From an uncultured Spirochaetaceae bacterium (GTDB lineage Bacteria; Spirochaetota; Spirochaetia; SZUA-6; DRHE01), in contig CAZFMD010000003.1 in the NCBI GenBank assembly GCA_964520025.1, forward strand, positions 1-41,737: a DNA stretch of 41,737 bases. Reading direction: 5' to 3'. The translations under genes and the position numbers were made by a program. The notes beneath the pieces are model-generated. The model was not told the origin of the DNA and made no database searches. It saw nothing but the letters and a program-made list of their open reading frames with translations. Shown in pieces: positions 2,363 through 21,751 of this stretch. Within the stretch, counting starts at the first letter, position 1; the number at the start of each line of letters is the position of its first letter.

Positions 2363-3457
2363 GTGAAAAGAATTCTGTTTGCGGTAATCGGTTTACTCGC
2401 CCTGTTTACGGTAATCAGGGCTTATACGCAAGAGCAGGGGATTGAGAACCGATACATCATTCAGCCTGGTATATTGGAGTTCGAAACCACCGAAGGCGGC
2501 GCCCGATTGGCCTTTGGATTTCTCGAGCGTTCCGAAGAACAGGGCCCGGGGCGTACCTGGAACCTTTTTCCGGTCCGGCTGTCACTGAGGGCGGGCAAGC
2601 AGAGCTTCCTGATCGCCATGAACGGCCTGTCCTTTTTGAGTCCCGCGGGACTGCGAATCGGCAGGCCCATAACCATCCGTGGGGTGAGGCGGGCAGACGT
2701 GATCAGCGTCGGGGGCGATGTCACGGTGGAAGGCACCGTGGAGGGGGATGTCTGGACCCTCGGAGCAGACATCAACCTGCTATCCGGAGCTACAGTGGCC
2801 GGAGATACCGTAGCCTTGGGCGGAAACGTCCAGGCGGACAGGCGCTCGAAGATCGGGGGCAACAAACAATCCCTCCCGAACATCAAGATTCCCTTTCTCA
2901 GCCTGTTGAGCTCCGAGCACTCTGCAGCGACCTTCCGCTTCATCATGGAGATACTGGGGATTTTTCTGTTTCTGCTCGTATTGTTTCTGTTTGTTCACTT
3001 CGGGCGCGCTCACCTGTCAGGCTTGGGTGCCGTGTTGTCCACCAGATGGAAGGTATCCATTCTCTATCTGGTGTTGGCTGCATTGATAATCCCCGTACTC
3101 ATGGCTCTGCTGATCGTGTCCGTGGTGGGCATTCTCGTTATTCCACTTGTTTCGATCATTCTGATGTTCCTGGCCTACCTCGGTTACGTGGCCATGGCGT
3201 TTCGTCTGGGATTGTGGTTGCGCAAGGCCTCGCCGGATGTTAGTGCTTCTGAAGCCTACACGACGGCACTGCTGGGACTGCTGGTAATCAAAGGACCGGT
3301 ATTGCTGGGAATCCTCTTCACCTTGTTGACAGCAGATTTTTTCCAGGGAATCGGCCGTTTCCTGTCAGTGGTCGGCACAATCGCCGTGGTCGGCGCCACT
3401 GTCTATGGTTTTGGAGGTGTTCTGCAACACCTTCGGGCCCAGGCCCGGGCGGGCTGA
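2363..3457 (+). CDS. Membrane protein with a signal peptide, a bactofilin-like (polymer-forming, beta-helical) repeat region and a C-terminal multi-TM domain
   Basis: GTG 2363 lies 7 nt after GAGGG. N-terminal KRILFAVIGLLALFTVIRA. Repeat stretch VISVGGDVTVEGTVEGDVWTLGADINLLSGATVAGDTVALGGNVQ. About five hydrophobic helices in the C-terminal half. The product call is tentative. Confidence 0.6.
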   Translation: MKRILFAVIGLLALFTVIRAYTQEQGIENRYIIQPGILEFETTEGGARLAFGFLERSEEQGPGRTWNLFPVRLSLRAGKQSFLIAMNGLSFLSPAGLRIGRPITIRGVRRADVISVGGDVTVEGTVEGDVWTLGADINLLSGATVAGDTVALGGNVQADRRSKIGGNKQSLPNIKIPFLSLLSSEHSAATFRFIMEILGIFLFLLVLFLFVHFGRAHLSGLGAVLSTRWKVSILYLVLAALIIPVLMALLIVSVVGILVIPLVSIILMFLAYLGYVAMAFRLGLWLRKASPDVSASEAYTTALLGLLVIKGPVLLGILFTLLTADFFQGIGRFLSVVGTIAVVGATVYGFGGVLQHLRAQARAG

Positions 3458-3517
3458 TTCGACGAACACCTGAAGCAGAAAATCTAAAATTTTCCTCCAA
3501 AAACAGGGGAATTCCTG

Positions 3518-3546
3518 TTGTAAATCGAGAATATTCTCACTATAAT
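3518..3546 (+). promoter_or_regulatory. Sigma-70-type promoter (TTGTAA-N17-TATAAT) with the perfect palindrome GAGAATATTCTC (3527-3538) in the spacer
   Basis: Read directly: TTGTAA ATC GAGAATATTCTC AC TATAAT, 54 nt upstream of ATG 3600. Same architecture as 23527-23555. Confidence 0.6.
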
Positions 3547-3599
3547 GGGCTCAAAATCATTGCGTTCGGCAAGACCGTAACATCAGGAGGAGAATCGGA

Positions 3600-4940
3600 A
3601 TGAAGAAAACAGACGTAGCAATTGTCGGGGGCAGCGCTGCAGGGTTGACTGCTGCAATCACGGCCCGAAGGCACTACCCGGACAAGAAGATCACGCTGAT
3701 CCGCAAAGAGAAGTTGGTACCAATCCCCTGCGGTATACCCTACATTTTCGGGACGGTTGGCAGTGCCCAGAAGAACCTGATACCGGACACGCCTCTGGAG
3801 AAGAATAAAGTCGACTTTCTGATCGATGAGGTCACGGAAATCAATCGGGAAAAACGCAGCTTGAAGACCAAGGGCGGGGAAGAAATCGTTTATGACAAGC
3901 TCATTATCGCGACAGGTTCTCTGCCGATGATGCCGCCCATCCCCGGTTTTGAAAAAGAAAACGTATATCCGGTGTTCAAGGATGTAGATCGCCTCGGCGC
4001 CATGCAGGAGAAGCTGAAGAGCTCCAAGAAGGTAGTGGTAATCGGAGGTGGATTTATCGGGGTGGAGATGTCGGATGAGATGAACAAAATAGGGAATCTG
4101 GATGTGACGATCTGCGAGCTTCTCCCCCATTGTCTTCAGCTGGCCTTCGATGAAGAGTTCTGCGAAGAGGCGGAAAAGCTCCTCAAGGAGCGGGGTGTGA
4201 AGATCCTGGCCAATCAGAAGGTCGTCTCGATCGAGGGAGACAAGAAGGTCAGCGGAGTGAAGTTGGGTGACGGTACGGTGTTGGAAGCGGACATGGTAGT
4301 AATCGGTATCGGAACGGTTCCCAATATCGAACTGGCCAAAAATGCCAATCTACGTCTTGGCCCCACGGGATCGATTTGGGTCGATCGAACAATGCGCACC
4401 ATCGACGAAAATATCTTCTCCTGTGGAGACTGCACGGAGAAGTTCTCTTTCTTCGGAGGCAAGCCCTCCAAGCTGAGGCTCGCTTCCATAGCCAGTTCGG
4501 AGGCCCGGATCGCAGGCTCCAATCTGTTCGGAATCCAGCGGGAAAGCGTTGGAACTATCGGGGTGTTTTCCTCAGCCATCGGCGATCGAGCTTTTGCAGA
4601 GGCGGGAATGACGGAAAGCTTCGCCAAGCATCAGGGCTACGAAGTGATCACGGGAGCAGCGGAAGGCCCGAATCGCCATCCCGGCAGCATGCCCGGCATG
4701 GCAAACCAGAAGATCAAGCTGATCTTCGAAAAGCGCACTAAGGTCCTGATCGGCGCGCAGATGATGGGAGACCATGCCGTAGGAGAGCTGGTTAACGCGG
4801 CCAGTGCCTGTATCCAGCACAAGATGACCATCGATGACATCTCCTGCTTCCAGATGGGAACCCATCCGGCATTGACCGCCTCGCCCGTGGCTTATCAATT
4901 CGTCAATGCGGCGGAATCCGCTTTGCTGGCGATGTCGTAG
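3600..4940 (+). CDS. FAD-dependent pyridine nucleotide-disulfide oxidoreductase (NADH oxidase / CoA-disulfide reductase family)
   Basis: AGGAGGAG RBS. N-terminal FAD fold VAIVGGSAAGLTAA. Family-typical single redox Cys in PIPCGIPY. Second dinucleotide fold VVVIGGGFIGVEM. 446 aa, typical for the family. Confidence 0.85.
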   Translation: MKKTDVAIVGGSAAGLTAAITARRHYPDKKITLIRKEKLVPIPCGIPYIFGTVGSAQKNLIPDTPLEKNKVDFLIDEVTEINREKRSLKTKGGEEIVYDKLIIATGSLPMMPPIPGFEKENVYPVFKDVDRLGAMQEKLKSSKKVVVIGGGFIGVEMSDEMNKIGNLDVTICELLPHCLQLAFDEEFCEEAEKLLKERGVKILANQKVVSIEGDKKVSGVKLGDGTVLEADMVVIGIGTVPNIELAKNANLRLGPTGSIWVDRTMRTIDENIFSCGDCTEKFSFFGGKPSKLRLASIASSEARIAGSNLFGIQRESVGTIGVFSSAIGDRAFAEAGMTESFAKHQGYEVITGAAEGPNRHPGSMPGMANQKIKLIFEKRTKVLIGAQMMGDHAVGELVNAASACIQHKMTIDDISCFQMGTHPALTASPVAYQFVNAAESALLAMS

Positions 4941-4953
4941 AGGGAGGATAGAA

Positions 4954-5343
4954 ATGCCCAAGATACTCGTTATCGATGATGACAAGGATTTTCAAGAAAC
5001 TACCCGGATTGTACTAGAGAAGAGCGGTTTTCAGGTTGCAGCTGCCTACGACTCGGAGGAAGGGTTGCAGAAGGTGCAAACGGAATCACCGGATCTTGTT
5101 ATTCTGGACGTGATGATGCCCAGCGGTTTCGAAGGCTTCGAGGTTGCCCGCAAGATTCGGGAGGAATTGAAGTTAATGGAGCTTCCGATCGTCCTGCTGA
5201 CCGCGGTGCATGGAGTCAAGCAAGTGCCGTACCGTTTCGCTCCCGATGAGCAGTGGCTGCCTGTGGACTACTTCTACGACAAACCGGTAGCCCCGGACGT
5301 GCTGGTGGCCAAGATCAAGGAGTACCTGAATATAACCCAGTGA
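4954..5343 (+). CDS. Stand-alone response regulator receiver (CheY-like)
   Basis: ATG 4954 follows GGGAGGA. ILVIDDD acidic pocket, phospho-acceptor context LVILDVMMP, LLTA, conserved Lys in YDKP. No output domain. Confidence 0.85.
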   Translation: MPKILVIDDDKDFQETTRIVLEKSGFQVAAAYDSEEGLQKVQTESPDLVILDVMMPSGFEGFEVARKIREELKLMELPIVLLTAVHGVKQVPYRFAPDEQWLPVDYFYDKPVAPDVLVAKIKEYLNITQ

Positions 5344-5432
5344 CCTGAGGGGGCCGTTGTTTCGATCCGCCCTTGCTGTACAGCTGTGTATGTACCGAGG
5401 CGCGGAGCGATTTGACAGGTAGGAGGACCAGG

Positions 5433-5861
5433 GTGGAGTCGTCCCGATGGAAACGCGCCGCCAGAGGTCTGCTGAACAACATCAAGATGAGCGTTCCGAT
5501 CCTTGTCGGCGTTTTGCTGCTGGTCGGAGCGCTCAATACACTCATCCCGAAAGAGTTCTTTGCAAGGATATTCACAGGCAATAAGGCTCTGGACCCGCTG
5601 GTCGGCGCTCTGTTCGGAAGTATCGCAGCCGGTAATCCCCTGACAAGCTACATCATCGGGGGAGAGCTGCTGAACAGCGGGATCAGCCTGATTGCGGTGC
5701 TGGCATTTGTCGTAAGCTGGGTGACTGTCGGAACCGTTCAGATTCCTGCGGAGAGTCTGATGCTGGGCAGGCGTTTCGCCCTGCTTCGCAACGGGATCAG
5801 CTGTCTCATGGCCATTGCCATAGCGCTGCTGACGGCACTGATAGCGGGGATCTTCCCATGA
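5433..5861 (+). CDS. Permease, N-terminal half of a split COG0701-like (DUF318-type) permease
   Basis: GTG 5433 lies 6 nt after AGGAGG. Polytopic hydrophobic protein. ATGA overlap with the next gene. The family assignment is from recall. Confidence 0.6.
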   Translation: MESSRWKRAARGLLNNIKMSVPILVGVLLLVGALNTLIPKEFFARIFTGNKALDPLVGALFGSIAAGNPLTSYIIGGELLNSGISLIAVLAFVVSWVTVGTVQIPAESLMLGRRFALLRNGISCLMAIAIALLTALIAGIFP

Positions 5862-6382
5862 GTAAAGTGCTCAAGAAGATCGGAGCCCAGTGGTTGTTCC
5901 TGATTGCCGTCATCCTGCTGTACATCATTCTGGGATTGTGGGATCTCGAGACAACCGTGGCGGCCCTGAAGGGATTCCTGGCTCTGCTGAAGAAGATCCT
6001 CCCCGTTCTGGGGATCGTCTTTGCCCTTATTTTTCTCTCCAACCTCGTGCTCAATCCCAAGATCGTCAACCGCTATCTGGGCAGGGGCGCGAAAAAGAGC
6101 GGATGGACCGTTGCGATTATCGCGGGGATCCTGTCCATGGGCCCGATCTACCTCTGGTATCCTTTGCTGGGAGAACTGAAAACCAAAGGCATGCGGGATG
6201 CCCTGATTGCCGTTTTTCTCTACAACCGGGCGGTGAAGATCCCTCTTGTTCCCGTGATGATCTACTACTTCGGTCTCAAGATCGTGGCGATCCTGACCGT
6301 TCTCATGATCCTGTTTTCAATAGCCAATGGACTGCTTGTAGAGAAACTGATTCGCAAGGGGGGGGGCAAAACAGAAGCCTGA
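5858..6382 (+). CDS. Permease, second half of the split permease pair
   Basis: ATGA start/stop overlap at 5858-5861. Five or so TM helices. Sits next to its partner half. Confidence 0.6.
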   Translation: MSKVLKKIGAQWLFLIAVILLYIILGLWDLETTVAALKGFLALLKKILPVLGIVFALIFLSNLVLNPKIVNRYLGRGAKKSGWTVAIIAGILSMGPIYLWYPLLGELKTKGMRDALIAVFLYNRAVKIPLVPVMIYYFGLKIVAILTVLMILFSIANGLLVEKLIRKGGGKTEA

Positions 6383-6497: not shown

Positions 6498-6848
6498 CTA
6501 CTTGCTCTCGGAGCTTTCTCCCTCCAGCTCCTCGATGCGATTTCGCAGGGCCGTCAGCTGATCTTCGAAAAACTTTACCTGATTCTGAAGTGTGTCCTTT
6601 TCCTGTTCAGCTGAGTAGGCGGGGGCGGGGGCGTACGAATAACCGCCGTAAGGCGGGCTCCAGGTTCCCCAGCCAGCTGCCGGGGAGGGAGCACCCCACC
6701 AGCGTCCCCGGCCCCTGCCGAATCCGCCGCCCATTCTCCCTCCATAGGGATTCATGTATCCAGGGACGTTGTAGCCGGCACAGAATCCGGCTGCCCTGCC
6801 TGTCATTGGTCCCATTCCGGCGGGACCACTTCCGTCTCCTCTTGGCAT
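6498..6848 (-). CDS. DUF5320-family protein (Gly/Arg/Tyr-rich middle, C-terminal coiled coil)
   Basis: N-terminus MPRGDGSGPAGMGPMTGRAAGFCAGY is the family signature as I recall it. C-terminal heptad-like EKDTLQNQVKFFEDQLTALRNRIEELE. Confidence 0.75.
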   Translation of the reverse strand: MPRGDGSGPAGMGPMTGRAAGFCAGYNVPGYMNPYGGRMGGGFGRGRGRWWGAPSPAAGWGTWSPPYGGYSYAPAPAYSAEQEKDTLQNQVKFFEDQLTALRNRIEELEGESSESK

Positions 6849-6883
6849 AAGTTGCCTCCTCTATAAGAACAATTTTTTGCGTT

Positions 6884-7186
6884 CTACCACCGGCCTCTAC
6901 CACGGCCAAAGCCGCCGCGGCCCCGGCCGAAACCGAAGCCGAAAAACCGGGGGCGAAAAGGTCCGTTGGCCGGGTACGCACCCCAGCCGCCGGCTGCGGC
7001 GGTGTACGGGTACCCGCCGGTATATCTACTGGCATATCTACCGGCACCCCAAAATGGCGCGCCCGCTGGAATCCGTCCGCCGTAGGGATTCATGTATCCC
7101 GGCATGCCGTACCCGGCGCAGTAGCCTGCCGCTCTGCCTGTCATCGGACCCATTCCGGCGGGACCGCTTCCGTCTCCTCTTGGCAT
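6884..7186 (-). CDS. DUF5320-family protein, tandem paralog lacking the coiled coil (ends in FGFGFGRGRGGFGRGRGRW)
   Basis: Same N-terminal 24 residues as the 6498-6848 protein. The 5' 55 nt are 52/55 identical to the paralog. Confidence 0.7.
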   Translation of the reverse strand: MPRGDGSGPAGMGPMTGRAAGYCAGYGMPGYMNPYGGRIPAGAPFWGAGRYASRYTGGYPYTAAAGGWGAYPANGPFRPRFFGFGFGRGRGGFGRGRGRW

Positions 7187-7213
7187 AATCTCTCACCTCC
7201 TCCGTGTAGTGGT

Positions 7214-7594
7214 CTAAGACCACGTTTTCCGGCCGTGCCCATGGCGATGCCCATGCGGCCCTCCGCCGCCCCTGCGGCCCGCCCATGCGTGTCCGTAGGG
7301 AGGATGGAACTGCACAACCCCGCCTTCGATGCCGATAGCCCTTGCATTGACCAGGGCCGCGGCCACTTTGCCTCGCGCCTGTCCCACGATTCTGCCGAAA
7401 GTAGGCCGGGAAACATTCATCCTGCGGGCCGCCTCCTCCTGGCCTAGACCCTCCAGATCCGCAAGGCGTATCGCCTCAAGCTCATCCAGGGTCAATACCG
7501 TCAAATTAGACGGTTGAACAGCTACCGGTTGCGGCATGAAACACACGCTGGGCGGATTAAATCCGATCCAGCGGGGTTTAATGGGACGGGCCAC
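7214..7594 (-). CDS. DUF134 (UPF0251) predicted DNA-binding protein with a His/Gly-rich tail
   Basis: GTG start 7594 with GGAGAG RBS. MARPIKPRWIGFNPPSVCFMP and LTLDELEAIRLADLEGLGQEEAARRMNVSRPTFGRI (sigma-70 region-4-like HTH) match DUF134. Tail HGHRHGHG. Confidence 0.75.
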   Translation of the reverse strand: MARPIKPRWIGFNPPSVCFMPQPVAVQPSNLTVLTLDELEAIRLADLEGLGQEEAARRMNVSRPTFGRIVGQARGKVAAALVNARAIGIEGGVVQFHPPYGHAWAGRRGGGGPHGHRHGHGRKTWS

Positions 7595-7620
7595 TCAAGA
7601 ATCTCTCCGATCAAACGTAG

Positions 7621-7671
7621 TTTTAAGCATATGCTCAAAATAAATTTAATGCCAACCGGACAAAATGTCAA
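7621..7671 (-). promoter_or_regulatory. Promoter of the DUF134 operon (TTGACA 7666-7671, N17, TAAATT 7643-7648) plus a 20-bp near-palindrome TTTTGAGCATATGCTTAAAA (7621-7640) at about +1
   Basis: Read on the minus strand: TTGACATTTTGTCCGGTTGGCATTAAATTTATTTTGAGCATATGCTTAAAA. Confidence 0.5.
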
Positions 7672-7696: not shown

Positions 7697-8347
7697 TTAA
7701 TCAACCCTCGGCGCTGCTTGCTTCTTCGCCCGGATAACCACAAAACCCCCTCGCCCATAGCCGCTTTCGAAATCCTGGGCACAGCGGATCTCTTGCATCT
7801 GTCCGAACACGGTCTGGATGGTTTGCGGCTGTTCAAAGCCGTTTTGTTGCAGAAGGGAGATCACCTCGGATGCACCGTAGAATGTCGCATCCCGATAGAA
7901 GAGATTCTGCTGCTTGCGCTGCTGGTACAGCATGCCAAGAGAGCTGTCCCTGTCCACGAAGCCGATCACGAAAATCCCTTCTGCTCTGAGCACCCTCCCG
8001 GCTTCCTGAAGGGATCTGGCCGCATCATCGACGAAGCAGATCGTGGTTACCATGAGGGCGAAGTCGAAACGGGAATCGGGAAAGGGCAGGTTCTCCGCTA
8101 CGCCGTCGGCCACGCGGATTCCCCGAGACCCGGCCAGGAGGCGCATTCGCGGGGAGGGTTCCACTCCGAACTTGATGCCGAGAGGCTCGGCGAACTTTGC
8201 GCTTCCTACTCCAATTTCAAGACCCTCGGCGTTCGTGGGAATAAAGTGGGCCACGGCTTTGAGCTCGGAGCTATAGACGTAGGGATTGCGGGAAAACCAT
8301 TCCTCGTATTCTTCGGCGTACTTGTCGAAAGGTTCGGTTCTGGCCAT
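7697..8347 (-). CDS. Class I SAM-dependent methyltransferase
   Basis: Motif I LEIGVGSAKF. Methyltransf_11-like FDFALMVTTICFVDD. 216 aa. Lies 3 nt downstream of the RACo-like gene. Confidence 0.8.
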   Translation of the reverse strand: MARTEPFDKYAEEYEEWFSRNPYVYSSELKAVAHFIPTNAEGLEIGVGSAKFAEPLGIKFGVEPSPRMRLLAGSRGIRVADGVAENLPFPDSRFDFALMVTTICFVDDAARSLQEAGRVLRAEGIFVIGFVDRDSSLGMLYQQRKQQNLFYRDATFYGASEVISLLQQNGFEQPQTIQTVFGQMQEIRCAQDFESGYGRGGFVVIRAKKQAAPRVD

Positions 8348-8350
8348 CTG

Positions 8351-9973
8351 TCACTCGAAATAGATGTTGTCGGCCACCAGGTACTGAAATTGCTGTCCTT
8401 CTATTTCATTCGGTTTCAGGTGGGTGAGTATTCCCTTGAGATTTTCCGCATCCCCTCTCTTCTGCTTCGAGCAGAGCATGACTCTGGCGCCGGCCAGGGC
8501 GCCGTTTCCGAAACGAACGATACGATCTTTTTCGATTTGGGGCAGCAGACCGATGGCCCTCGCATTGTCGATATCCATGAAATTCCCGAAGGCCCCGGCC
8601 AGATAAACCCGCTGGAGCTGCTCCGGTTGAATCCCGTAGTAGCGGATCAGCAGGTCCTGATCGGTGCGCAGCCCCGCTTTGGCGATGATCAGCTGATTGA
8701 TGTCCTCCTGGGTGATGCAGAGGCTGTCGGAGAAGCAGTAATCCTTGCCGATACGCGCCCGCCGGTCCATGATGCCGTTTTTCAGCAACTCGGCCAGCAG
8801 GTCAATGACTCCCGAACCGCATACTCCGACCGCATGCTTGTCGCCCAGGGTCTGGTAGCGTGCCCGACCCTCCTCGATCTTGAAACGCGTGATCGCCCCT
8901 TCGATGGCTCCGACCCCGCAGCGTATCTGGTATCCCTCGTAGGCGCCGCCCGCTGCGCAGGAGGCTGTCAACATCTTCTCTCGGTTACCGATCACCACCT
9001 CGCCATTTGTGCCGATATCGATGATCATACCGACATCTTCGCCTTCATAGAGCCCGGTAGCGATAATGTCGGCCAGGCAGTCTGAACCGGCGTGCCCGCC
9101 GATCAGCGGAGGGCTGTACACCAGCGCCTTCGGGTGTATGTTGAGTCCGATATCTGAGGCCGTTGACATGAGCGCGGAGAGATCTGCGGCTTCGAAGGGG
9201 ATGAAGCCGAGGCTGCGTACATCTGTGCCGAATACAAGATCCCGCATGGTGCTGTTGCCCACAATCACCGCTTCGTAGATGCGCCCGCTTGTTCCCTGTT
9301 GCGAGGGCAGCAACTTTTCCCACTCGCAGAGGGACTGGTTGATCCCCTCGATGACCGCCTCCTGAAGCTCTTTCAGTCCGCCCGGGTGGTCGATGGTGTA
9401 GCCGATGCGGGAAATCACCTCGTTTCCGTAGGCGATTTGCGGATTCTTGCTGGCCATGGCCTGTCCCACGTTTTCGCCTTTCTCCAGATCCACCACCTGG
9501 AGCGCCAGCGTTGTGGTGCCCACGTCTACGGCCAGCCCGTAGATGCCGCCTCCGTAGGGTCCCAGATCCCGGCCGTCTTCAGCAATCACCCGGTTGCCGA
9601 CACGCCGCACCGCAGGATCCAGGTCCACCTCGGTTTGGGCATAATCGGATAGAACTGTGTACCTGCCGAAATTCGGGATGTACACGGTGATGTCCTGTCG
9701 GCAATCGGTGACCTTGGCCTGGCAGGCCAGGCGCTGCCCAAGCTCGATCTTGCTCGGGTTCAGCAGACGGCGTTCTGCGGGGGTCACCGGGCTGAGGGAG
9801 CTCGCACCCCGTTCCAAACGGATGATATCCCGACCGCACTCGCCCCGCCCCTCGCACTCGGAGTCTATCTCCACCCCCCCGATTCGACGGATGTGCTGTA
9901 AGACTGTCTGCCCCGGCTGTAGCTCGACTCCGCCTCGGCCCCGGGCGTATTGGGGAAAGTACATCTTAGCCAT
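8351..9973 (-). CDS. RACo-like corrinoid activation protein (N-terminal 2Fe-2S ferredoxin + ASKHA/DUF4445 ATPase)
   Basis: ATG 9973 lies 5 nt after GGAGG. N-terminal Cys cluster SECEGRGECGRD...LACQAKV. Large ASKHA-like body (GLAVDVGTTT, IIDIGTNGE). The tracked ORF extends to 10057, but that extension has no RBS. Confidence 0.7.
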   Translation of the reverse strand: MAKMYFPQYARGRGGVELQPGQTVLQHIRRIGGVEIDSECEGRGECGRDIIRLERGASSLSPVTPAERRLLNPSKIELGQRLACQAKVTDCRQDITVYIPNFGRYTVLSDYAQTEVDLDPAVRRVGNRVIAEDGRDLGPYGGGIYGLAVDVGTTTLALQVVDLEKGENVGQAMASKNPQIAYGNEVISRIGYTIDHPGGLKELQEAVIEGINQSLCEWEKLLPSQQGTSGRIYEAVIVGNSTMRDLVFGTDVRSLGFIPFEAADLSALMSTASDIGLNIHPKALVYSPPLIGGHAGSDCLADIIATGLYEGEDVGMIIDIGTNGEVVIGNREKMLTASCAAGGAYEGYQIRCGVGAIEGAITRFKIEEGRARYQTLGDKHAVGVCGSGVIDLLAELLKNGIMDRRARIGKDYCFSDSLCITQEDINQLIIAKAGLRTDQDLLIRYYGIQPEQLQRVYLAGAFGNFMDIDNARAIGLLPQIEKDRIVRFGNGALAGARVMLCSKQKRGDAENLKGILTHLKPNEIEGQQFQYLVADNIYFE

Positions 9974-10004
9974 GGTAGCCTCCACTGCTGTTCTCCTGAA
10001 ATCC

Positions 10005-10021
10005 ATGCAAAACGCATGCCC
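10005..10021 (-). promoter_or_regulatory. Sigma-54 (-24/-12) promoter GGGCATGCGTTTTGCAT
   Basis: The minus-strand reading matches TGGCAC-N5-TTGCA, with GG and GC at the correct spacing. It sits about 30 nt upstream of ATG 9973. Confidence 0.6.
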
Positions 10022-10111
10022 TATGCAGCATCCGAGGTCTGTTCCTCTATAATTCATGGTGTCAGCTGGATTTGTTTCGCAATCCCGTTTGCGGGTCTGT
10101 TCTGCAGGTTA

Positions 10112-10192: not shown

Positions 10193-11539
10193 ATGGAAAG
10201 CAGGCAGAGCGTTATTCTGGATTCGATCAACGAGGGGGTATTCACCGTTGATCTGGATTGGCATATTACGAGCTTCAACCAGGCTGCTGAGCGGATTACC
10301 GGAATCGGCCGAAAGCAGGCCCTGGGCCGGCTCTGTTCGGAGATCCTCCGGGCCGACGTGTGCGAGAAGGACTGTGCGTTGAAGCGTACCTTCAGTCAGG
10401 GAGTTCCGGTGGTCAATGCCACCGCCAGCATCGTCAACCATCTGGGTAAACGCATCCCGGTTCGTCTTGCCACCGCCCTTGTCAGCGACGAGCGCGGGCG
10501 GGTTATCGGTGGGGTGGAGACCTTCCAGGATCTCAGCCAGGTCGAGCAGCTTCAGAAGGAACTGCAGGAACGCTACACCTTCGAGGATATCGTGGGCCAC
10601 AGCCCGGCCATGAGGAAACTCTTCGACGTGGTTCCCCAGATCGCCGAAAGCTCCAGTACCGTTCTGATAGAGGGGGCCAGCGGCACGGGCAAGGAGCTGT
10701 TCGCCCGGGCGATACATCATCTCTCGCCACGGGAAAACGGCAGATTCGTGGTTGTCAATTGCGCCGCGCTGCCGGATACTCTTCTGGAGAGCGAGCTCTT
10801 CGGCCACAAGGCCGGGGCATTCACCGACGCCCGCCATGACAAGCCCGGTCGTTTCGCCCTTGCCGACGGGGGAACGATCTTCCTCGACGAGATCGGAGAT
10901 ATCTCTCCGGCCATGCAGGTTCGCCTTCTGCGGGTACTTCAGGACCGGATCGTCGAACCCCTCGGTTCAGTCGAGCCTGTCAAGGTGGATGTCCGCGTTG
11001 TGGCCGCTACCAACAAGGACCTGGTTCGCCTGGTGCGGGAGGGCCGGTTTCGCGATGACCTGTACTACCGAATCCGGGTCATCCACCTCGAGATACCCGA
11101 ACTCAGGCAACGGCGGGAGGACATCCCCCTGCTGATCGATCACCTGGTGGCCAAGTTCACCCACCTCCAGGGCAAGGAGATTCTCGGGGTTTCGGATGAG
11201 GTCATGAGCCGATTGATGGAGTACGAGTATCCGGGAAACGTACGGGAGTTGGAAAACATAATCGAACAGGCCTTCGTGCTCTGCCGGGGCGGACGGATCG
11301 AGCTGCACCATCTACCCCCGGAATTGCGGCCCTACGGCACGATCGGCGTAGACCATGCACGGCCCACTTCCCTCAAGGCCATGGAAAAGCACCTGATCGG
11401 TGAAGCGCTGCGGCGTGTTCGCGGGAACCGAGGCCGCGCCGCGCGGGAGCTGGGAATCGATCCCAGCACGCTCTATCGAAAGATAAAAGCTCTGGGGCTG
11501 GATGTTCCGGAAGGCGACGGCCGCAGCTGCAGGGGATGA
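10193..11539 (+). CDS. Sigma-54-dependent transcriptional activator (PAS - AAA+ - Fis-type HTH)
   Basis: PAS-like N-terminus (ILDSINEGVFTVDLDWHITSFNQAAERITG). Walker A GASGTGKE. GAFTDA (GAFTGA variant). ESELFGH. C-terminal HTH RAARELGIDPSTLYRKIK. Confidence 0.9.
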   Translation: MESRQSVILDSINEGVFTVDLDWHITSFNQAAERITGIGRKQALGRLCSEILRADVCEKDCALKRTFSQGVPVVNATASIVNHLGKRIPVRLATALVSDERGRVIGGVETFQDLSQVEQLQKELQERYTFEDIVGHSPAMRKLFDVVPQIAESSSTVLIEGASGTGKELFARAIHHLSPRENGRFVVVNCAALPDTLLESELFGHKAGAFTDARHDKPGRFALADGGTIFLDEIGDISPAMQVRLLRVLQDRIVEPLGSVEPVKVDVRVVAATNKDLVRLVREGRFRDDLYYRIRVIHLEIPELRQRREDIPLLIDHLVAKFTHLQGKEILGVSDEVMSRLMEYEYPGNVRELENIIEQAFVLCRGGRIELHHLPPELRPYGTIGVDHARPTSLKAMEKHLIGEALRRVRGNRGRAARELGIDPSTLYRKIKALGLDVPEGDGRSCRG

Positions 11540-11599: not shown

Positions 11600-12118
11600 T
11601 CAGGGGCTGTCAAGCTCGGAGTCGAGTCTTGCCCGGTACTCCCGGAACAGCTTCCGGCAGATTCTGGCTTCCGGCCCCTGGTTTAGGAAGCGTTTGAAAT
11701 CACCCGATAGTTGAGTCCCGTCCGCGGAGGGCTTCTCGACGAATGCCAGGAAACATACGAAACGCTCGATCACCTTCTGATCCACGGCGTGTTCGAACTC
11801 ACAGGCGACGCGCTCCGATCTCTCCGGGCTCAAGGCGAGCACGCTCTGCAGGAAATGGCTGATGATGTAATGATTCAAGACGATGGTTGCCGCTTTTTCC
11901 CGTCCCTCTGGGGTGAGCAGGATGAACTCGTAGGGCTCATACTCGACCAGATTCTTGCCCGCCAGGCTCTTCAGAGCGGCGCTTACCGTGGATTTGGACA
12001 CGCCCATGGTTTGAGCAATATCCCGCACCCGAGCGGTTCGTTTTGCCTTTTCCAGGCGGTAGATCGCTTCCAGGTAATCTTCTAGGGTTGAACTCAGTTT
12101 CTCTTCCATATTCCGCAC
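11600..12118 (-). CDS. DtxR/MntR-family metal-dependent transcriptional regulator
   Basis: LEDYLEAIYRLEK...ARVRDIAQTMGVSKSTVSAALKSLAGKNLVEYEPY is the DtxR winged-HTH signature. The first codon is GTG 12118; ATG 12109 is an alternative. Confidence 0.8.
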   Translation of the reverse strand: MRNMEEKLSSTLEDYLEAIYRLEKAKRTARVRDIAQTMGVSKSTVSAALKSLAGKNLVEYEPYEFILLTPEGREKAATIVLNHYIISHFLQSVLALSPERSERVACEFEHAVDQKVIERFVCFLAFVEKPSADGTQLSGDFKRFLNQGPEARICRKLFREYRARLDSELDSP

Positions 12119-12188: not shown

Positions 12189-12908
12189 CTATCCCGACTT
12201 TCTCCAGGAAATATCGGAACCCAATGTCCGGTATACCTGGGCGGCACATTCGCTCAACAGCGTTTTGAGACGGGTGAGAGAAATATTCTGGGGTCTTATG
12301 GGGATGCCCATCCAGTCAGAGAAATCGAGGAGTTTCTCCGGGTGCCTGGCGGAGTAATCATCCCAGAATCCCACAGGATCCAGAACCACCGCTCCTCCAG
12401 AATGCTGGGGGAAGGTCTCGTTGGCCTTGCCCTTGTCCCAGTCCTGGAACACGAGGTCCCGATGGATGATCCAACCCGGGGTCAACCAGAAAACCTTCTC
12501 TCCGTTTCTGATCCGCTCCCTCTGCTCTCTGTCGGCCAGCATGTCCACGCAGTGCGTTGCGTTGATCCGGGCGATATGTTTGCCCTGCTCCTCGATTACA
12601 TGGTCTATGGTGCGAGCAGGATCGTTCATATCGATAAAACAGAACTTGCCTCCGTACACGACGATGACCGCTTCGCTTTGGCTCTTGGCTCTGCCGATTC
12701 GCTCCACCAACTGCTGCTCCAGCTCCCTGGGAACCTCATGCCGCCCCGGTTTTGTGTACTCGATCCTTCTGGCGTTCAAGAAACCGCTTTTTTTCAACTG
12801 ATTCAGTTCCAGGCTCAGGGTGCCGCAGGCCACGATCGTGCAATGCTCGAAGGAAATTTCCGATTCTGTCGAGGTTTTCTGGCTCCTCCGGAACTTTACT
12901 TCATCCAT
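12189..12908 (-). CDS. DUF1638-like protein (family usually linked to corrinoid methyltransferase systems)
   Basis: 239 aa. IVACGTLSLELNQL and VIVVYGGKFC resemble the DUF1638 pattern as I recall it. The assignment is tentative. Confidence 0.5.
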   Translation of the reverse strand: MDEVKFRRSQKTSTESEISFEHCTIVACGTLSLELNQLKKSGFLNARRIEYTKPGRHEVPRELEQQLVERIGRAKSQSEAVIVVYGGKFCFIDMNDPARTIDHVIEEQGKHIARINATHCVDMLADREQRERIRNGEKVFWLTPGWIIHRDLVFQDWDKGKANETFPQHSGGAVVLDPVGFWDDYSARHPEKLLDFSDWMGIPIRPQNISLTRLKTLLSECAAQVYRTLGSDISWRKSG

Positions 12909-14509: not shown

Positions 14510-14526
14510 TGGCACGGCGTTTGCAT
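14510..14526 (+). promoter_or_regulatory. Sigma-54 (-24/-12) promoter TGGCACGGCGTTTGCAT
   Basis: Exact match to the TGGCAC-N5-TTGCA consensus, about 88 nt upstream of GTG 14614. Confidence 0.7.
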
Positions 14527-14613: not shown

Positions 14614-15633
14614 GTGAGGCGATGGCTCAAGCTCGATTTGAATGAGATGCCCTATTCCCCTCCGGAGAATCTCGTCAGAGCCGCTGAACAGGGCCTCAGG
14701 AGCTTGAATCGGTACGCGGATACGGACGCTCTACAACGACTCGCCGTTCTGCTGGCCCAGTATACCGGGGTAAGACGGGAGAAGATCGTGATCGCCCCGG
14801 GCTCGGATCTCCTGCTGCGGGAGATAGTGCTGTGCTTCGCCGGCAGGAGAAAGGTCGTGATGGCCAGCCCGACTTTTCTTCCCACCGCATCGGTGGCCAG
14901 GCGTTTCGCCCGCAAGTTCGTCAGCGTCCGGCTGAGCCGGCCGGAGTTCACCCTGGCACGCGAGCCTCTGCTGGAGGAACTGGAAGAGCCGAGCCTGGTG
15001 ATTCTCGACAACCCCAACAATCCGACCGGTAGGCTCGTTCTGGACAGAGAATTGGTAGAGCTCATTCTCGCTCGACCGGACACGCTCCTGGTCGTGGATG
15101 AGGCATACTTCGAGTTTTCCGGTTTGTCCTTCGCGGGCATGGTTGAAGCCCATGCCAATTTGGCATTGACCCGCACACTGGACAAGGCCTTCGGGCTGGC
15201 CGGCGTGCGGGTCGGCTATATGATAGCCGGAGAGGCATTCTTCGATACATTATGCCCTTCGATTGCCTTCCTGCCCCAGCCGAGCCTGCAGGCGGCCACC
15301 GAGGCGCTGCTGCATCCGGATTACATGTGGAAGAACGTTCAGCGCATCATGGAAGAGCGGGAGAAGTTGTCGAGAGAATTGGAGATCCTGGAAGCCCGGG
15401 TTTATCCGAGCAGCACCAATTTTCTGCTCCTCAGATCAAAGATACCGGATCTGGTCGAAGAGCTGACGGATCGGGGAATCCTCGTCATGGACGTTTCTCG
15501 CCAGCTCGGTGCCGGATTTATACGGTTGAGCGTGGGCACGCCGGATGAGAATGAGGAGTTCGTGAGGATATTTCGAGAAATAAAGCGGCAAGCGACAGGA
15601 CAGGAGAACACCTATGAATACAGTGCAGGATGA
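14614..15633 (+). CDS. Class I/II PLP-dependent aminotransferase (HisC / CobD-like)
   Basis: GTG lies 7 nt after GGAGG. DNPNNPTG, VVDEAYFEF, PLP-Lys context TLDKAFGLAGVRVGY. 339 aa. Confidence 0.8.
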   Translation: MRRWLKLDLNEMPYSPPENLVRAAEQGLRSLNRYADTDALQRLAVLLAQYTGVRREKIVIAPGSDLLLREIVLCFAGRRKVVMASPTFLPTASVARRFARKFVSVRLSRPEFTLAREPLLEELEEPSLVILDNPNNPTGRLVLDRELVELILARPDTLLVVDEAYFEFSGLSFAGMVEAHANLALTRTLDKAFGLAGVRVGYMIAGEAFFDTLCPSIAFLPQPSLQAATEALLHPDYMWKNVQRIMEEREKLSRELEILEARVYPSSTNFLLLRSKIPDLVEELTDRGILVMDVSRQLGAGFIRLSVGTPDENEEFVRIFREIKRQATGQENTYEYSAG

Positions 15634-16606
15634 TTCGGCAAAAAACAGAGAGACACCCATCAGGATTGCCTTCGGGCCGGTTCCCTCCAGGCGGCTGGGC
15701 CGCAGCCTGGGGATTAACAACATTCCCCACAAGGTGTGTCCTTACTCCTGCGTGTACTGCCAGGTGGGGCGTACCCTGCGCTTCCAGGTAGAGCCTTCCG
15801 CCTTCTACGCACCGGAGGCCGTTGTGCGCGCAGTTTCAGAAAAGGTCGCCGAATCCGAGATCACCGCCGATTATCTGACCTTCGTTCCTGATGGCGAGCC
15901 CACTCTTGATCTTCACATCGGAGAAGCGATTGAGCAGCTGAAGCCGTTGGGGACCAGGATCGCCGTGATTACAAACGCCACCCTTATCGAACGTGAGAAT
16001 GTGCGCGCGGCTCTACACAGCGCCGACTGGGTTTCTCTCAAGATAGATTCGGTGAGGGAAAATACGTGGAAAAAGGTCAACCGGCCCCATAGGCGTCTGC
16101 GCCTGCAGGGCATTCTCGAGGGGATGCTGGAGTTTCGCAACGGCTATGCGGGAACCTTGGTTACCGAAACCATGCTTATTGCAGGCCTCAACGACGGGGA
16201 CGATGAGCTCAATGAGATCGCTTCCTTCCTTGCCCGGCTCGCTCCTCATGCCTCCTACATATCCATTCCGACCCGGCCTCCGGCGGAGAGTTGGGTGCTT
16301 GCTCCGGGTGAACAGGCTGTGGCCAGGGCTCATCGGATCCTAGGCAGGGAGGTCGAACGGGTGGAGCATCTCATCGGCTACGAGGGCAACGCCTTCGCCT
16401 CTTCGGGAAATCCCGAGGAGGACCTGTTGAGTATAACCGCCGTCCACCCAATGCAGGAACAGGCCGTTGAGCAGCTGCTCGGCAGAACCGGGGCCGATTG
16501 GTCCGTGGTACAGAATCTGCTTGACAGCGGATTGCTAGTGCAGACGGCCTACGACGGCAAGAAATTCTTCCTCCGAGCATTTGCGAGAAAGCAAGCCTCT
16601 GCATGA
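15614..16606 (+). CDS. Radical SAM protein (COG0731-like)
   Basis: CX3CX2C motif CPYSCVYC preceded by GPVPSRRLGRSLGIN. AGGAGA RBS. 20-nt overlap with the upstream gene. Confidence 0.8.
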   Translation: MNTVQDDSAKNRETPIRIAFGPVPSRRLGRSLGINNIPHKVCPYSCVYCQVGRTLRFQVEPSAFYAPEAVVRAVSEKVAESEITADYLTFVPDGEPTLDLHIGEAIEQLKPLGTRIAVITNATLIERENVRAALHSADWVSLKIDSVRENTWKKVNRPHRRLRLQGILEGMLEFRNGYAGTLVTETMLIAGLNDGDDELNEIASFLARLAPHASYISIPTRPPAESWVLAPGEQAVARAHRILGREVERVEHLIGYEGNAFASSGNPEEDLLSITAVHPMQEQAVEQLLGRTGADWSVVQNLLDSGLLVQTAYDGKKFFLRAFARKQASA

Positions 16607-17481
16607 AATCCCCGGTACCGCGCACCGCCGCGATTCACGACCTCTCGGGATTCGGAAGAGCCTCTCTGACCGTGATTATCCCGGTGCTATCGACCATGGG
16701 CATTCAGGTCTGCCCTCTGCCCACGGCGGTGCTGTCAACCCACACCGGCGGTTTCGAAAACTACCGCATGGTGGATCTGAGCAGCCATATGCGCAGCACA
16801 ATCGAGCATTGGCGGGATTTGGAGCTTTCCTTCGATGCGATCTACAGCGGCTTCCTGGGCTCTTCCGAGCAGATCGAAATCGTTTCCGGATTTATCGAAA
16901 CATTCTCTCGGGAAGATCAGCTGGTCCTGATCGACCCGGTGATGGGGGATGAGGGCAAGCCGTACGGACCTATCCGGCCCGAATTGATACGGGGCATGCG
17001 CCGGTTGGTCGAGCGCGCCCAGGTCATCACGCCTAATTTCACGGAGTGCTGCTTTCTGCTTGACCGCGAGTACGCCACGGAAATCGATCCGGGAGAGTTG
17101 AAGGAACGGCTGATCGCCCTGTCGGATTTCGGTCCCTCCATTGTAATCATCACCAGTGTTCCCCTGGATCGAGCCGAGCAATCCTCCTCTGTAGTTGCAT
17201 ACAACCGGGAGGACGGCCGCTTCTGGCAAGTAGATTGCGCGTTCATTCCCGCCTACTACCCGGGAACCGGTGACGCCTTTGCAAGCGTAGTCTTGGGCAG
17301 CCTCCTTCAGGGCGACAGCCTCCCGATCGCCCTGGACCGATCCGTACAGTTCGTCACCTTGGCGATCAAGGCGAGTTTTGGATACGACCTGCCTCGCAGA
17401 GAGGGAGTTGTTCTGGAGCGGGTTCTGGGGAACCTGAAAGCTCCGCTTACTTCCATGACCTATGAGCTGGCAGACTGGTAA
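16603..17481 (+). CDS. pdxK: Pyridoxal/pyridoxamine kinase family protein
   Basis: ATGA overlap with the radical SAM gene. N-terminus IHDLSGFGRASLTVIIPVLSTMGIQVCPLPTAVLSTHTGGF and C-terminal GTGDAF are typical of the PdxK/PdxY ribokinase fold. Confidence 0.75.
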   Translation: MKSPVPRTAAIHDLSGFGRASLTVIIPVLSTMGIQVCPLPTAVLSTHTGGFENYRMVDLSSHMRSTIEHWRDLELSFDAIYSGFLGSSEQIEIVSGFIETFSREDQLVLIDPVMGDEGKPYGPIRPELIRGMRRLVERAQVITPNFTECCFLLDREYATEIDPGELKERLIALSDFGPSIVIITSVPLDRAEQSSSVVAYNREDGRFWQVDCAFIPAYYPGTGDAFASVVLGSLLQGDSLPIALDRSVQFVTLAIKASFGYDLPRREGVVLERVLGNLKAPLTSMTYELADW

Positions 17482-17522
17482 GGTCCGTAGAGCAGGCATG
17501 GATTACAGACAGGAGGAGGAAG

Positions 17523-18359
17523 ATGAAACCATACGATTCAAACAACGGCGGCGGAAGGTCCGTCGGAGTCCAAGAGGCGGAATCCAGTGCAAACAACGCC
17601 AATTTTGTTACGGGTATCGGCTGGTTTGATTCGCTTCTACCCTCCGGACTTCCCGTCCCTTCTTCTACCGTGATTTCCGGACCCAGCGGCACGGGTAAAC
17701 CCTTCGTCGGTCTTTCCTTTGCCGGTTCCTGGCTGAGACAGGGGGGCAGGGTTATCTTTATTCCGATCCACTCCTCCTATCCTCAGCTGTTCGACAGAGG
17801 GCTCCGGGGTTTGCACGGTCATTCCCTTCAGGACTTCCCGGATTCCCACTTTTTCATTCTTCTGGATACGGACATGGATTCGCGGGAAGGGGGTGTGGAG
17901 GTGGCGGGGAGCAATTCCATTCGCTGCAATGTAGTGAACCCGCAAATCTGGCAGGAAGCCCTGGATCTGGCCTCAGCCTCTATGGAAGGGCAGGGGCCGA
18001 TCCTGATCTTTGCCAGTGCACTCAATCTTCTTTTGATGTCGCCGACCTACGGCGAACAGTTTTTTCAGATGCTCCTGGAAACGATCCGAAATCCGGGGGG
18101 CTGGACCTACCTGCTCGCGGTGAGCTCGAGCATTCTTCTCAAGAAAATCATTATCTTAGAACAGGCGGCGGACCACCTGTTTCTCATGGAGCGAGTTTCA
18201 GGGGATCCCCGCGTGCTACTTCGGGCCGCCAGGGTTCGGGGCGCCGGATTTGCCAGTTCCTCGGTGCCGATCCCCACGATGCCGGATCTTGTAGAAGAGC
18301 TGAAAAACGACGCCATAGCCTCCCGCCGTATCCTGATTCCCACGGTCAGCGGAGTGTGA
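17523..18359 (+). CDS. KaiC/RecA-like ATPase-domain protein with an atypical Walker A (GPSGTGKP)
   Basis: Strong RBS AGGAGGAGGAAG. GIGWFDSLLPSGLPVPSSTVISGPSGTGKPFVGLSF parallels the KaiC-like GIxGLDxLLxGGLPxGSxxLxxGxPGTGKT. Confidence 0.6.
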   Translation: MKPYDSNNGGGRSVGVQEAESSANNANFVTGIGWFDSLLPSGLPVPSSTVISGPSGTGKPFVGLSFAGSWLRQGGRVIFIPIHSSYPQLFDRGLRGLHGHSLQDFPDSHFFILLDTDMDSREGGVEVAGSNSIRCNVVNPQIWQEALDLASASMEGQGPILIFASALNLLLMSPTYGEQFFQMLLETIRNPGGWTYLLAVSSSILLKKIIILEQAADHLFLMERVSGDPRVLLRAARVRGAGFASSSVPIPTMPDLVEELKNDAIASRRILIPTVSGV

Positions 18360-20851: not shown

Positions 20852-20854
20852 CTA

Positions 20855-21082
20855 CTAGCACCTCACCAGAATTCTTGCCGCCATTCCCCGGCCGATTGCG
20901 ACCTGGGTTCGTTTTACCTCCACCACAACCGGCCCGCCCCAGGCCAGGGCGGAGAGCTTGCGAAGCATCTGTCCTTCGACCAGCCCCAGGCTCCGCAGTC
21001 TTACCTGGATACCCCGCCCGCCGTGAATCGAGACCACGGTCGCCTTTTCTCCGGGCTTGAGCTCAGTGAGTAGCTTTTCCAT
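20855..21082 (-). CDS. feoA: FeoA-family protein
   Basis: 75 aa. LKPGEKATVVSI...LRSLGLVEGQ is the FeoA/SH3-like signature. Confidence 0.85.
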   Translation of the reverse strand: MEKLLTELKPGEKATVVSIHGGRGIQVRLRSLGLVEGQMLRKLSALAWGGPVVVEVKRTQVAIGRGMAARILVRC

Positions 21083-21590: not shown

Positions 21591-21604
21591 TGATTCTTAA
21601 TTAT

Positions 21605-21632
21605 ACTATAATACAAAACTTCGGCTTGTCAA
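21605..21632 (-). promoter_or_regulatory. Promoter of the DtxR-feoAB operon (TTGACA-N16-TATAGT), overlapped by the 13-bp palindrome ATTATAGTATAAT (21600-21612)
   Basis: Minus strand reads TTGACAAGCCGAAGTTTTGTATTATAGTATAATTAAGAATCAATG. Only 14 nt separate the -10 and the ATG, and there is no SD. Confidence 0.5.
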
Positions 21633-21751
21633 ACATTTTACGGCGTTCCGAAAAATTTTTTTTCATTCAACCACGATCGGGGGGCTATCCTGTTGCAGGG
21701 TTGCCACGTTATATGCTACCACTTGCTTAACTTTAACTTGGGACTTCGAAG

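Follow-up and report, generated by a model that had tools for sequence, protein, structure and literature searches.

Small dimeric regulators with a helix-turn-helix (HTH) domain of the sigma70-region-4 type make up the Tfx family (EnfR/TON_1525 of Thermococcus onnurineus; MTH0916); an N-terminal arm has been implicated in DNA contact, and there is no obvious effector domain (PMC10570040). Tfx and EnfR bind a pseudo-palindrome in the core promoter and repress clusters of anaerobic metallo-enzymes, by steric hindrance or as a road-block (PMC10570040). Orange-protein (ORP) complexes, in which Orp3 and Orp4 are MinD-type ATPases with two [4Fe-4S] ferredoxin motifs (PMC6345978), have as their known regulator OrpR of Desulfovibrio vulgaris, a sigma54 enhancer-binding protein (EBP) that activates the orp operons, senses redox potential via a Cys-ligated Fe-S cluster, and is reported from Deltaproteobacteria only (PMC8359166). 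Here, a 12-bp palindrome, GAGAATATTCTC, was followed up in a 41,737-nt stretch of DNA from an uncultured Spirochaetaceae bacterium (contig CAZFMD010000003.1; this whole stretch is hereafter "the window"). The dyad lies in two promoters, one preceding a flavoprotein operon (site 1) and one preceding an ORP-like operon (site 2). Taken as a whole, the evidence favors promoter-occluding repression of both operons by a DUF134-family paralogue encoded outside the window; we infer the binding, the direction of control, the identity of the paralogue in this organism, and the signal.

Both sites read exactly as the original prediction had given them, and GAGAATATTCTC occurs nowhere else in the window (Table 1). 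The predicted common layout was likewise confirmed: a -35 hexamer, 3 nt, the dyad, 2 nt, and a -10 hexamer, with ATC before and AC after the dyad at site 1 and AAT before and AT after it at site 2. Each dyad can be read as GAG-A-ATAT-T-CTC, and that of site 2 is extended by ATG...CAT flanks to the perfect 18-bp palindrome AATGAGAATATTCTCATT. In a consensus scan, both promoters were of sigma70-like type, with 10/12 hexamer matches each; no match to a sigma54 promoter was found at site 1 or site 2. Given the size of the window and its G+C content of 57%, 0.0013 copies of the exact 12-mer are expected (P(≥2) ~8e-7). Any perfect 12-bp palindrome present twice is expected 0.024 times, and GAGAATATTCTC is the sole repeated one. 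When up to two mismatches were allowed, as had been proposed for a scan, three matches were obtained in the window vs. 1.48 expected, which is no enrichment by itself; only the exact 12-mer is enriched. The signal is therefore exact identity plus identical register, rather than the relaxed-match count. The two promoters are unalike outside the hexamers and the dyad, and since their flanks are non-homologous, they do not represent a duplicated segment. Separately, Logan contigs of metagenome runs X3 and X4 end or begin inside 3510-3539, with a 30-nt overlap at the operator; these breaks suggest an assembly-graph branch, arising from strain variation or from a near-identical promoter elsewhere.

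The promoters of orthologous operons were then checked for the motif, and the dyad was found to be kept while the flanks had diverged. For site 1, the -35 hexamer, dyad, and -10 hexamer remain in register in the orthologous promoters of L113, L203, L204, L006, L009, L098, and L100 (L-numbers denote genome loci and metagenome contigs), with the surrounding sequence diverged; the dyad is identical in six of them and reads GAGAATATGTTC in L009. The site-2 orthologues (L128, L108, L142, L171, L150, L158, L186, and L120) have kept the same three elements in register between diverged flanks.

A family-wide operator was sought at 80 genome loci encoding relatives of the DUF134 protein of the window. 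These loci came from bacteria (Spirochaetota, Caldisericota, Atribacterota, Chloroflexota, Planctomycetota, Omnitrophota, Acidobacteriota, Chlorobiota, Cloacimonadota, and Bacillota) and from archaea (Jordarchaeia, Freyarchaeota, Nanoarchaeota, and Aenigmatarchaeota, with Asgard and DPANN lineages included). A GAGNATATNCTC dyad with at most two mismatches was present 5-60 bp before the DUF134 start at 38 of the 80 loci (39 matches, vs. 2.1 expected from the rate in the remainder of the same loci; P = 2e-35). From 36 such sites, the consensus ATTATGAGCATATGCTCATAAT was derived. A matrix built from these 36 sites gave 71 matches in 1.08 Mb, nearly all at DUF134 starts; this count is circular for the training sites, whereas the test that yielded P = 2e-35 is not. 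The pattern invariably has ATAT at its center, between arms of three bases (GAG/CTC, TGG/CCA, or GAA/TTC), and it usually lies within AT-rich TTAT...ATAA flanks. With the family matrix, site 2 scored 10 bits and site 1 less than 6 bits; these scores are due to the near-absence of A at the core position in the matrix, and they prompted the hypothesis that a paralogue is involved rather than a rejection of the sites.

Metagenome contigs were scanned with GAGAATATTCTCAYTATA, a pattern that names no gene, and at least 120 contigs matched (25-59% G+C). Among the 120 contigs listed, a DUF134 gene starts beside the dyad in 45, and 64 carry a homologue of one of the linked genes of the window (DUF134, MinD/Fer4, DUF5320-ferredoxin, CGGC, DUF89/ARMT1, methyltransferase, or flavoprotein plus permease); many of the others are 1-3 kb long, or AT-rich with a likelier chance match. 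The exact GAGAATATTCTC is the upstream dyad of 38 DUF134 genes, which marks it as an apparently bona fide member of the operator family. Judged from these alignments and counts, the GAGAATATTCTC dyad is very probably an operator of the DUF134/UPF0251 family.

Tandem copies of the dyad, 26 bp apart, are frequent among the listed contigs. At the DUF134 promoters of L101, L126, L133, L166, L169, L188, L191, L106, L208, L214, and L216, two dyads stand 26 bp apart from center to center (25 in L191), the first lying within the spacer and the second 6 nt past the -10 hexamer; the target promoters in the window have the first copy only. A different arrangement was observed in L107 (158-169) and L195 (3517-3528), both of 56-58% G+C, where the dyad directly follows TATAAT and precedes a gene for a 311-aa protein. 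That gene, too, may belong to the regulon, in an organism related to this one.

MinD/Fer4, DUF5320, CGGC, DUF89, flavoprotein, and split-permease genes recur beside DUF134 across phyla, and ARMT1 and CGGC genes adjoin DUF134 and MinD genes at many loci. L010 has counterparts of both window operons gathered with DUF134 in a single cluster that contains two operators; L073 has DUF134, the flavoprotein, and two MinD genes in one string. Because both operons belong to this set, which clusters with DUF134 across phyla, their assignment to a single regulon, as originally proposed, appears sound at the level of gene content. L092 (2869-3552) encodes a DUF134 protein joined to a Nitro_FeMo-Co domain, and GAGAATATTCTC lies upstream of the gene. 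Such a fusion hints that what the regulator senses is the ligand of the orange-protein domain.

To relate operators to proteins, DUF134 sequences were aligned beside their own upstream dyads, and the second HTH helix was found to co-vary with the operator. Helix SRPTFGRI is paired with GAGCATATGCTC, SRQTFGNI with TTGGCATATGCCAA, SR(P/A)T(F/C)ARI with GAGAATATTCTC, and SQPTF(H/Y)RL with GAATATATATTC. The dyad takes two positions in the core promoters of DUF134 genes: one is within the spacer, 3 nt past the -35 hexamer, and the other is 6 nt past the -10 hexamer. Both positions are used at promoters of the A-type (those encoding the ARI-containing helix), and the second is used at those of the G-type; both window sites sit at the spacer position. 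The helix of the window's own DUF134 is of the TF-G-R type, which pairs with CATATG cores and matches the operator of that gene, and in L010 a near-identical helix is accompanied by CATATG at the MinD target as well. Sites 1 and 2, having an AATATT core, therefore point to a different paralogue. The original prediction had listed the DUF134 protein among its candidate regulators; the family has stood up, in that the operator tracks DUF134 genes, and the individual protein has not, given its CATATG-type helix and its own GAGCATATGCTT operator. The binder is probably a zinc-ribbon paralogue of the T(F/C)-A-R type, encoded outside the window and autoregulated via tandem GAGAATATTCTC copies, as far as helix and operator sequences can tell.

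A suitable paralogue was encountered in the metagenome matches. L106 (54% G+C) encodes an A-type DUF134 with a C-terminal CxxC...CxxC module, and its homologues include proteins from metagenome-assembled genomes (MAGs) of Spirochaetales, GCA_016930115.1 (L208, 57% G+C) and GCA_964536145.1 (L216). A-type loci in these MAGs and their relatives have 51-59% G+C and a conserved neighborhood, NfeD-Band7-Band7-DUF134-DUF5320-inositol-phosphatase. All of the A-type proteins of the L106 group have the helix SR(A/P)TCARIL, and all of their promoters have the form TTGAC(A/T)-3 nt-GAGAATATTCTC-2 nt-TATA.T with a second GAGA(A/T)TATTCTC 26 bp downstream; that of L214 matches site 1 down to the "atc" and "ac" linkers. 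In L188 (7259-7280), a flavoprotein gene with a GAACATATGTTC site was noted beside an AATATT-type DUF134, the mirror image of the arrangement in the window. Mixed operator types within one neighborhood may be common.

Contigs identical to the window come from marine and estuarine sediments, and in four metagenomes (X1-X4) the window is present at k-mer depths of 12.2, 13.8, 13, and 11.9. X2-X4 contain a contig of 387-447 bp in which the 55-nt tandem-operator stretch of L106 recurs with 6-7 differences, between flanks unlike either window promoter. Its tandem operator is followed by ATGGCCAAACCCAA (MAKPK...), and the contig runs into GGTTCATGGCCAAACCCA (MAKP..., the N-terminus of the A-type subfamily). 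The depths of this contig and of the window were 12.9/13.8, 14/13, and 12.2/11.9 in X2-X4, respectively; in X1, where three contigs of 199-478 bp share the match, they were ~11.9 (split over two contigs) and 12.2. Further runs gave 10.7/9.7, 12.1/13.7, and 24.1/25.5. The tandem-operator contig was thus found at the depth of the window in seven of the eight metagenomes compared, which supports, but does not prove, that the A-type locus resides in the same genome as the window.

Several points weigh against the assignment to an A-type paralogue and against parts of the evidence for it. The remaining run, X9, in which several strains are present, misfits (16.5 vs. 39-55), and the link of the A-type locus to this organism is drawn from contig depth, a 55-nt match at ≥80%, and 30-nt flank consensuses of short contigs. 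Co-variation of helix and operator may partly mirror clade structure, as the counts ignore phylogeny, and many of the A-type sequences are closely related, the scan having required the exact 12-mer. TTG stands in the -35 register in just 18 of the 98 distinct contexts, many of which are Bacteroidota-style promoters, and the -10 geometry of the metagenome matches is partly built in, since the pattern contained AYTATA after the dyad. Finally, the window's DUF134 shares the GAG/CTC arms, its gene adjoins the site-1 operon in every relative, and the L009 site GAGAATATGTTC is a hybrid, so that cross-binding is possible.

Cross-binding is accordingly the alternative that must be taken seriously, unlikely as we hold it to be. 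A single local regulator, the window's DUF134, would bind its own GAGCATATGCTT and, perhaps more weakly, both GAGAATATTCTC sites with graded affinities. The original prediction had stated that no obvious cognate regulator lies beside either site; for site 1 this needs correction, since a DUF134 gene is convergent to its operon, as it is in every relative. The operator of this gene has not only the same arms but also the same ATAT center, the L009 hybrid combines the two half-site types, and the glycine at the discriminating helix position, having no side chain, might tolerate either base. In all loci listed, however, proteins with G at that position have C, never A, in their own operator, and the near-identical helix of L010 goes with CATATG even at a target gene. 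The AATATT core is fully symmetric, and it is the same at two promoters and across at least five species, which suggests the optimal site of its binder, not a weakened one, and an A-type paralogue with the exact operator occurs in the order and, by depth, in the same samples.

On the preferred assignment to an A-type paralogue, a DUF134 dimer would bind the dyad through its sigma-region-4-type HTH domains; the half-site centers are ~9 bp apart, a distance at which two HTHs could occupy adjacent major grooves. Because the dyad fills the 17-bp spacer, a bound dimer would exclude RNA polymerase, and at the regulators' own promoters occupancy of the start site would do so. This placement, which the original prediction had recognized as suited to polymerase exclusion, recurs at the orthologous and DUF134 promoters. 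The two operons would stay jointly repressed for as long as the regulator is bound, and its release would be triggered, conceivably, by a redox or metal-cluster-status signal. A signal of this kind is suggested by the ribbon of four cysteines, by the joining of DUF134 to Nitro_FeMo-Co, and by analogy to OrpR, and it is plausible for targets that are ORP-type Fe-S proteins; the DUF5320 protein, always co-transcribed, would be a candidate partner.

That DUF134 acts on the dyad as an activator or dual regulator, e.g. by reshaping the spacer as MerR does, is improbable by comparison. MerR-dependent promoters have a dyad in an over-long spacer of 19-20 bp and are activated by DNA distortion. A spacer-centered dyad is also the MerR layout, and the operons are transcribed in situ and hence are not permanently off. 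Yet the spacer has the optimal length of 17 bp at both promoters, on which ground a MerR-type activated promoter was rejected; both hexamers are near-consensus, so that no activator would be needed; and at DUF134-gene promoters the dyad is also seen over the start site, 6 nt past the -10 hexamer, where only repression is expected.

Recognition of the dyad by an unrelated regulator is more improbable still. The DtxR paralogues (11600-12118 and 21063-21590) had been put forward as candidates, and the targets are Fe-S proteins, but the 12-mer is found near neither DtxR gene nor feoAB, and in metagenomes it accompanies genes for DUF134 rather than for DtxR. DtxR, IdeR, and MntR boxes are interrupted palindromes of ~19 bp, of the TTAGGTTAGCCTAACCTAA type, at metal-uptake genes; the original remark that the dyad is not a classical DtxR/IdeR box is borne out by its sequence as well as by its absence near these genes. 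The Fur/PerR/Zur 7-1-7 box consists of two arms of 7 nt separated by a single unpaired base (TGATAATnATTATCA type). It was rejected, as the dyad is even in length without a central base and no Fur-family gene was found among the open reading frames (ORFs) scanned. Coincidence, or a by-product of promoter duplication with no regulatory role, can be dismissed: AT-rich palindromes are common in promoter spacers and the relaxed search was not enriched, but a repeated palindrome was hardly to be expected in the window, the promoter flanks are non-homologous, and the dyad is kept in orthologues and widely tied to DUF134.

The features of the window that bear on these arguments are collected in Table 1.

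Table 1. Promoters, candidate operators, and genes of the two target operons and the DUF134 locus
Feature	Position	Strand	Details	Basis
Site-1 promoter (flavoprotein operon)	3518-3546	+	-35 TTGTAA 3518-3523, -10 TATAAT 3541-3546, 17-nt spacer	
Candidate operator, site 1	3527-3538	.	GAGAATATTCTC, within promoter spacer	
Site-1 operon	3600-6382	+		Pfam, NCBIfam, gene calls on identical contigs, sediment metatranscriptomes
Pyr_redox_2 flavoprotein	3600-4940	+	Nox/CoA-disulfide-reductase-like	
Stand-alone receiver domain	4954-5343	+		
Two permease halves	5433-5861, 5858-6382	+		
DUF134 operon	6498-7594	-	DUF134 first, then two DUF5320 genes	
DUF5320 gene	6498-6848	-		
DUF5320-like gene	6884-7186	-	3' of DUF134	
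DUF134 gene	7214-7594	-	helix SRPTFGRIV	Pfam, alignment, structure model
Candidate operator, DUF134 operon	7625-7636	.	GAGCATATGCTT (gene strand), 6 nt after -10	31 bits, family matrix
DUF134-operon promoter, sigma70-type	7643-7671	-	TTGACA 7666-7671, TAAATT 7643-7648, 17-nt spacer	
DUF89/ARMT1-like phosphatase	21752-22591	+	travels with gene set elsewhere	Pfam
CGGC-domain protein	22652-23176	-	divergent from site 2; travels with gene set elsewhere	Pfam
Site-2 promoter (ORP-like operon)	23527-23555	+	-35 TTGTCA 23527-23532, -10 TATATT 23550-23555, 17-nt spacer	
Candidate operator, site 2	23536-23547	.	GAGAATATTCTC, inside 18-bp palindrome 23533-23550	
Candidate second operator (weak), site-2 leader	23645-23656	.	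GGGCATATCCTC	one mismatch to GAGNATATNCTC
Nitro_FeMo-Co (orange-protein/NifX-like) remnant	23702-23737	+	11 codons, MQIAIAAGGTR*	alignment with L142, L171, L150; Pfam of L142 protein
Site-2 operon (Orp3/Orp4-like)	23734-26077	+		Pfam, NCBIfam, ORP literature, transcribed
DUF5320-ferredoxin	23734-24135	+		
Fused double MinD/ParA ATPase	24227-26077	+	616 aa, inserted 4Fe-4S ferredoxin domains	

The ATPase of the site-2 operon is made up of two CbiA/ParA modules, each with Fer4 insertions, and its NCBIfam matches include MrpORP and MinD. In relatives (L142, L171), the first gene of the operon encodes a full Nitro_FeMo-Co domain fused to the DUF5320-ferredoxin (Fer4); in the window and in L128, the Nitro_FeMo-Co domain is deleted, and the TGA stop of the remnant in the window overlaps the ATG of the DUF5320-ferredoxin gene. 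The leader of this operon (23556-23701, ~146 nt) has blocks that are kept in distant orthologues, e.g. ATCCTCA.GAATCAGCC.TATT and GGAATG. A riboswitch or other known RNA was considered for this leader and rejected: no Rfam match was obtained at the gathering threshold, with only noise in the window, and six orthologous loci gave no Rfam match at E ≤5. A consensus fold of seven leaders was weak (-4.7 kcal/mol, 3 covarying pairs). The leader also contains GGGCATATCCTC, ~100 bp 3' of site 2 and ~50 bp 5' of the remnant ORF, which scores less than 6 bits with the family matrix and has one weak half; its block is partly kept in L128, L142, and L158. From its sequence, this dyad might serve as another operator, perhaps one for the CATATG-type DUF134 of the window.

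Transcription was assessed in two sediment metatranscriptomes, using contigs of a strain 96-99% identical to the window. For the site-1 operon, RNA contigs cover 3570 onward and none lie in 3300-3569 (contigs show presence only); parts of the site-2 operon are covered. The starts of RNA contigs just 3' of the predicted promoters fit those promoters. The DUF134-DUF5320 operon is strongly covered by RNA contigs from 6754 to 7610, which end short of its candidate operator.

The DUF134 gene begins ~800 bp past the end of the site-1 operon, and no second DUF134 gene was found within the window. Its GAGCATATGCTT has the same position and sequence in L006-L009, L113, L203, and L204. Many members of the family carry a four-cysteine ribbon; the protein of the window has none, but a His/Gly-rich tail, and Pfam zinc-ribbon matches were below threshold. 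Its AlphaFold model had a mean predicted local distance difference test score of 79 (94-97 over residues 31-80), and the fold is modeled as an N-terminal arm, a three-helix sigma-4-like HTH, and a beta-hairpin. When this model was submitted to Foldseek, only the ~45-residue HTH was aligned; the matches were to region 4 of ECF sigma factors and to the DNA-binding domain of DeoR (SorC family) on its operator, all with E ≥0.06, and EnfR (8HNP) ranked 50th. In a sequence search of the PDB (E ≤1), only DeoR and PhyR were matched, the DeoR matches being marginal.

Other genes surround this locus. A corrinoid-related set, comprising a RACo-type reductive activator, an S-adenosylmethionine-dependent methyltransferase, and a DUF1638 gene, is interleaved with it (7697-10057 and 12189-12908, both minus strand), and the RACo and methyltransferase genes are kept upstream of DUF134 in L006, L007, L203, and L204. 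The DtxR paralogue at 11600-12118 adjoins DUF1638. The other DtxR-family repressor forms one minus-strand string with FeoA and FeoB (18944-21590), which has its own TTGACA-17-TATAGT-like promoter at ~21600-21640 and is unrelated to the dyad.

DUF134/UPF0251 proteins are widespread in anaerobic bacteria and archaea. In a full-text literature search (DUF134, UPF0251, PF02001, COG1342, DUF5320, and motif strings), no assigned site, regulon, or function, and no experiment on DNA binding or on an effect on transcription, was found for DUF134, though publications beyond those searched may exist. What appears to be new is the family with its operator, the recognition code that the alignments suggest, and the connection with ORP-type genes; the mechanism, a promoter-occluding HTH repressor, is ordinary and well known. 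What follows is a family-wide operator, a candidate recognition code, and a concrete regulon, all directly testable. The proposed regulon comprises Orp3/4-like ATPases, proteins with orange-protein domains, DUF5320, CGGC, and DUF89 proteins, the Nox/CoADR-like flavoprotein, and the split permease, and it would aid the annotation of a recurrent gene block of unknown function in uncultured anaerobes.

A broader synthesis can be offered tentatively, at somewhat less than even confidence. DUF134/UPF0251 proteins may be ancient autoregulated repressors of bacteria and archaea and the missing regulators of ORP-type metallocluster genes outside the Deltaproteobacteria. In their code, one helix residue (G, A, or H/Y) would set the core (C, A, or T) and another (R or N) the arms. 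Two spirochaete paralogues, reading CATATG and AATATT, would form a two-tier circuit, and sensing would proceed via the four-cysteine ribbon, a fused Nitro_FeMo-Co domain, or DUF5320.

Among known systems, MerR regulation is similar in the dyad centered between the hexamers; it differs in the length of the spacer (17 bp here vs. 19-20 bp) and in the unrelated fold of the regulator. The best regulator match to the HTH core of DUF134 is Bacillus subtilis DeoR (SorC family; PDB 7BHY, 8R7Y), at 35% identity over 40 residues and a target-normalized template-modeling score of 0.70. DeoR is also a palindrome-binding repressor, but it has a large effector domain that binds sugar phosphates, and only the ~45-residue HTH aligns; DUF134 has instead the N-terminal arm, the beta-hairpin, and, in many members, a zinc ribbon or Nitro_FeMo-Co domain.

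OrpR controls the same kinds of genes, namely those for the Orp3/Orp4 ATPases, the Nitro_FeMo-Co orange protein, and their partners. Whereas OrpR activates sigma54 promoters from upstream palindromes, the window promoters are of sigma70 type with the operator in the spacer. Compared with the ORP system of Desulfovibrio, the Orp3/Orp4-type ATPase architecture is present at 24227-26077, and the Orp8-type Nitro_FeMo-Co protein is reduced to the 11-codon remnant. The window also contains an OrpR-like sigma54 EBP (10193-11539), which is not placed at the site-1 or site-2 promoter. It is divergent from the RACo-methyltransferase-DUF134-DUF5320 string, and its PAS domain has C48-x7-C56-x3-C60, much like the Fe-S ligands C52, C61, and C65 of OrpR. 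A perfect sigma54 promoter, TGGCACGGCGTTTGCA (14510-14525, plus strand), precedes an aminotransferase operon (14614-18359), and a weaker one, GGGCATGCGTTTTGCA (10006-10021, minus strand), lies 33 nt before the RACo start (9973). Judged by sequence and position, both are likely targets of the adjacent EBP.

The archaeal Tfx/EnfR repressors differ from DUF134 (PF02001) in the acidic alpha+beta TFX_C domain, which was not found in DUF134, in the 36-bp pseudo-palindrome of EnfR, unlike the 12-22-bp dyad of DUF134, and in distribution, Tfx being ~98% archaeal and DUF134 occurring in bacteria and archaea. By type, nevertheless, they are the nearest characterized relatives, with the modeled sigma-4-type HTH, the modeled N-terminal arm, and the site in the core promoter in common.

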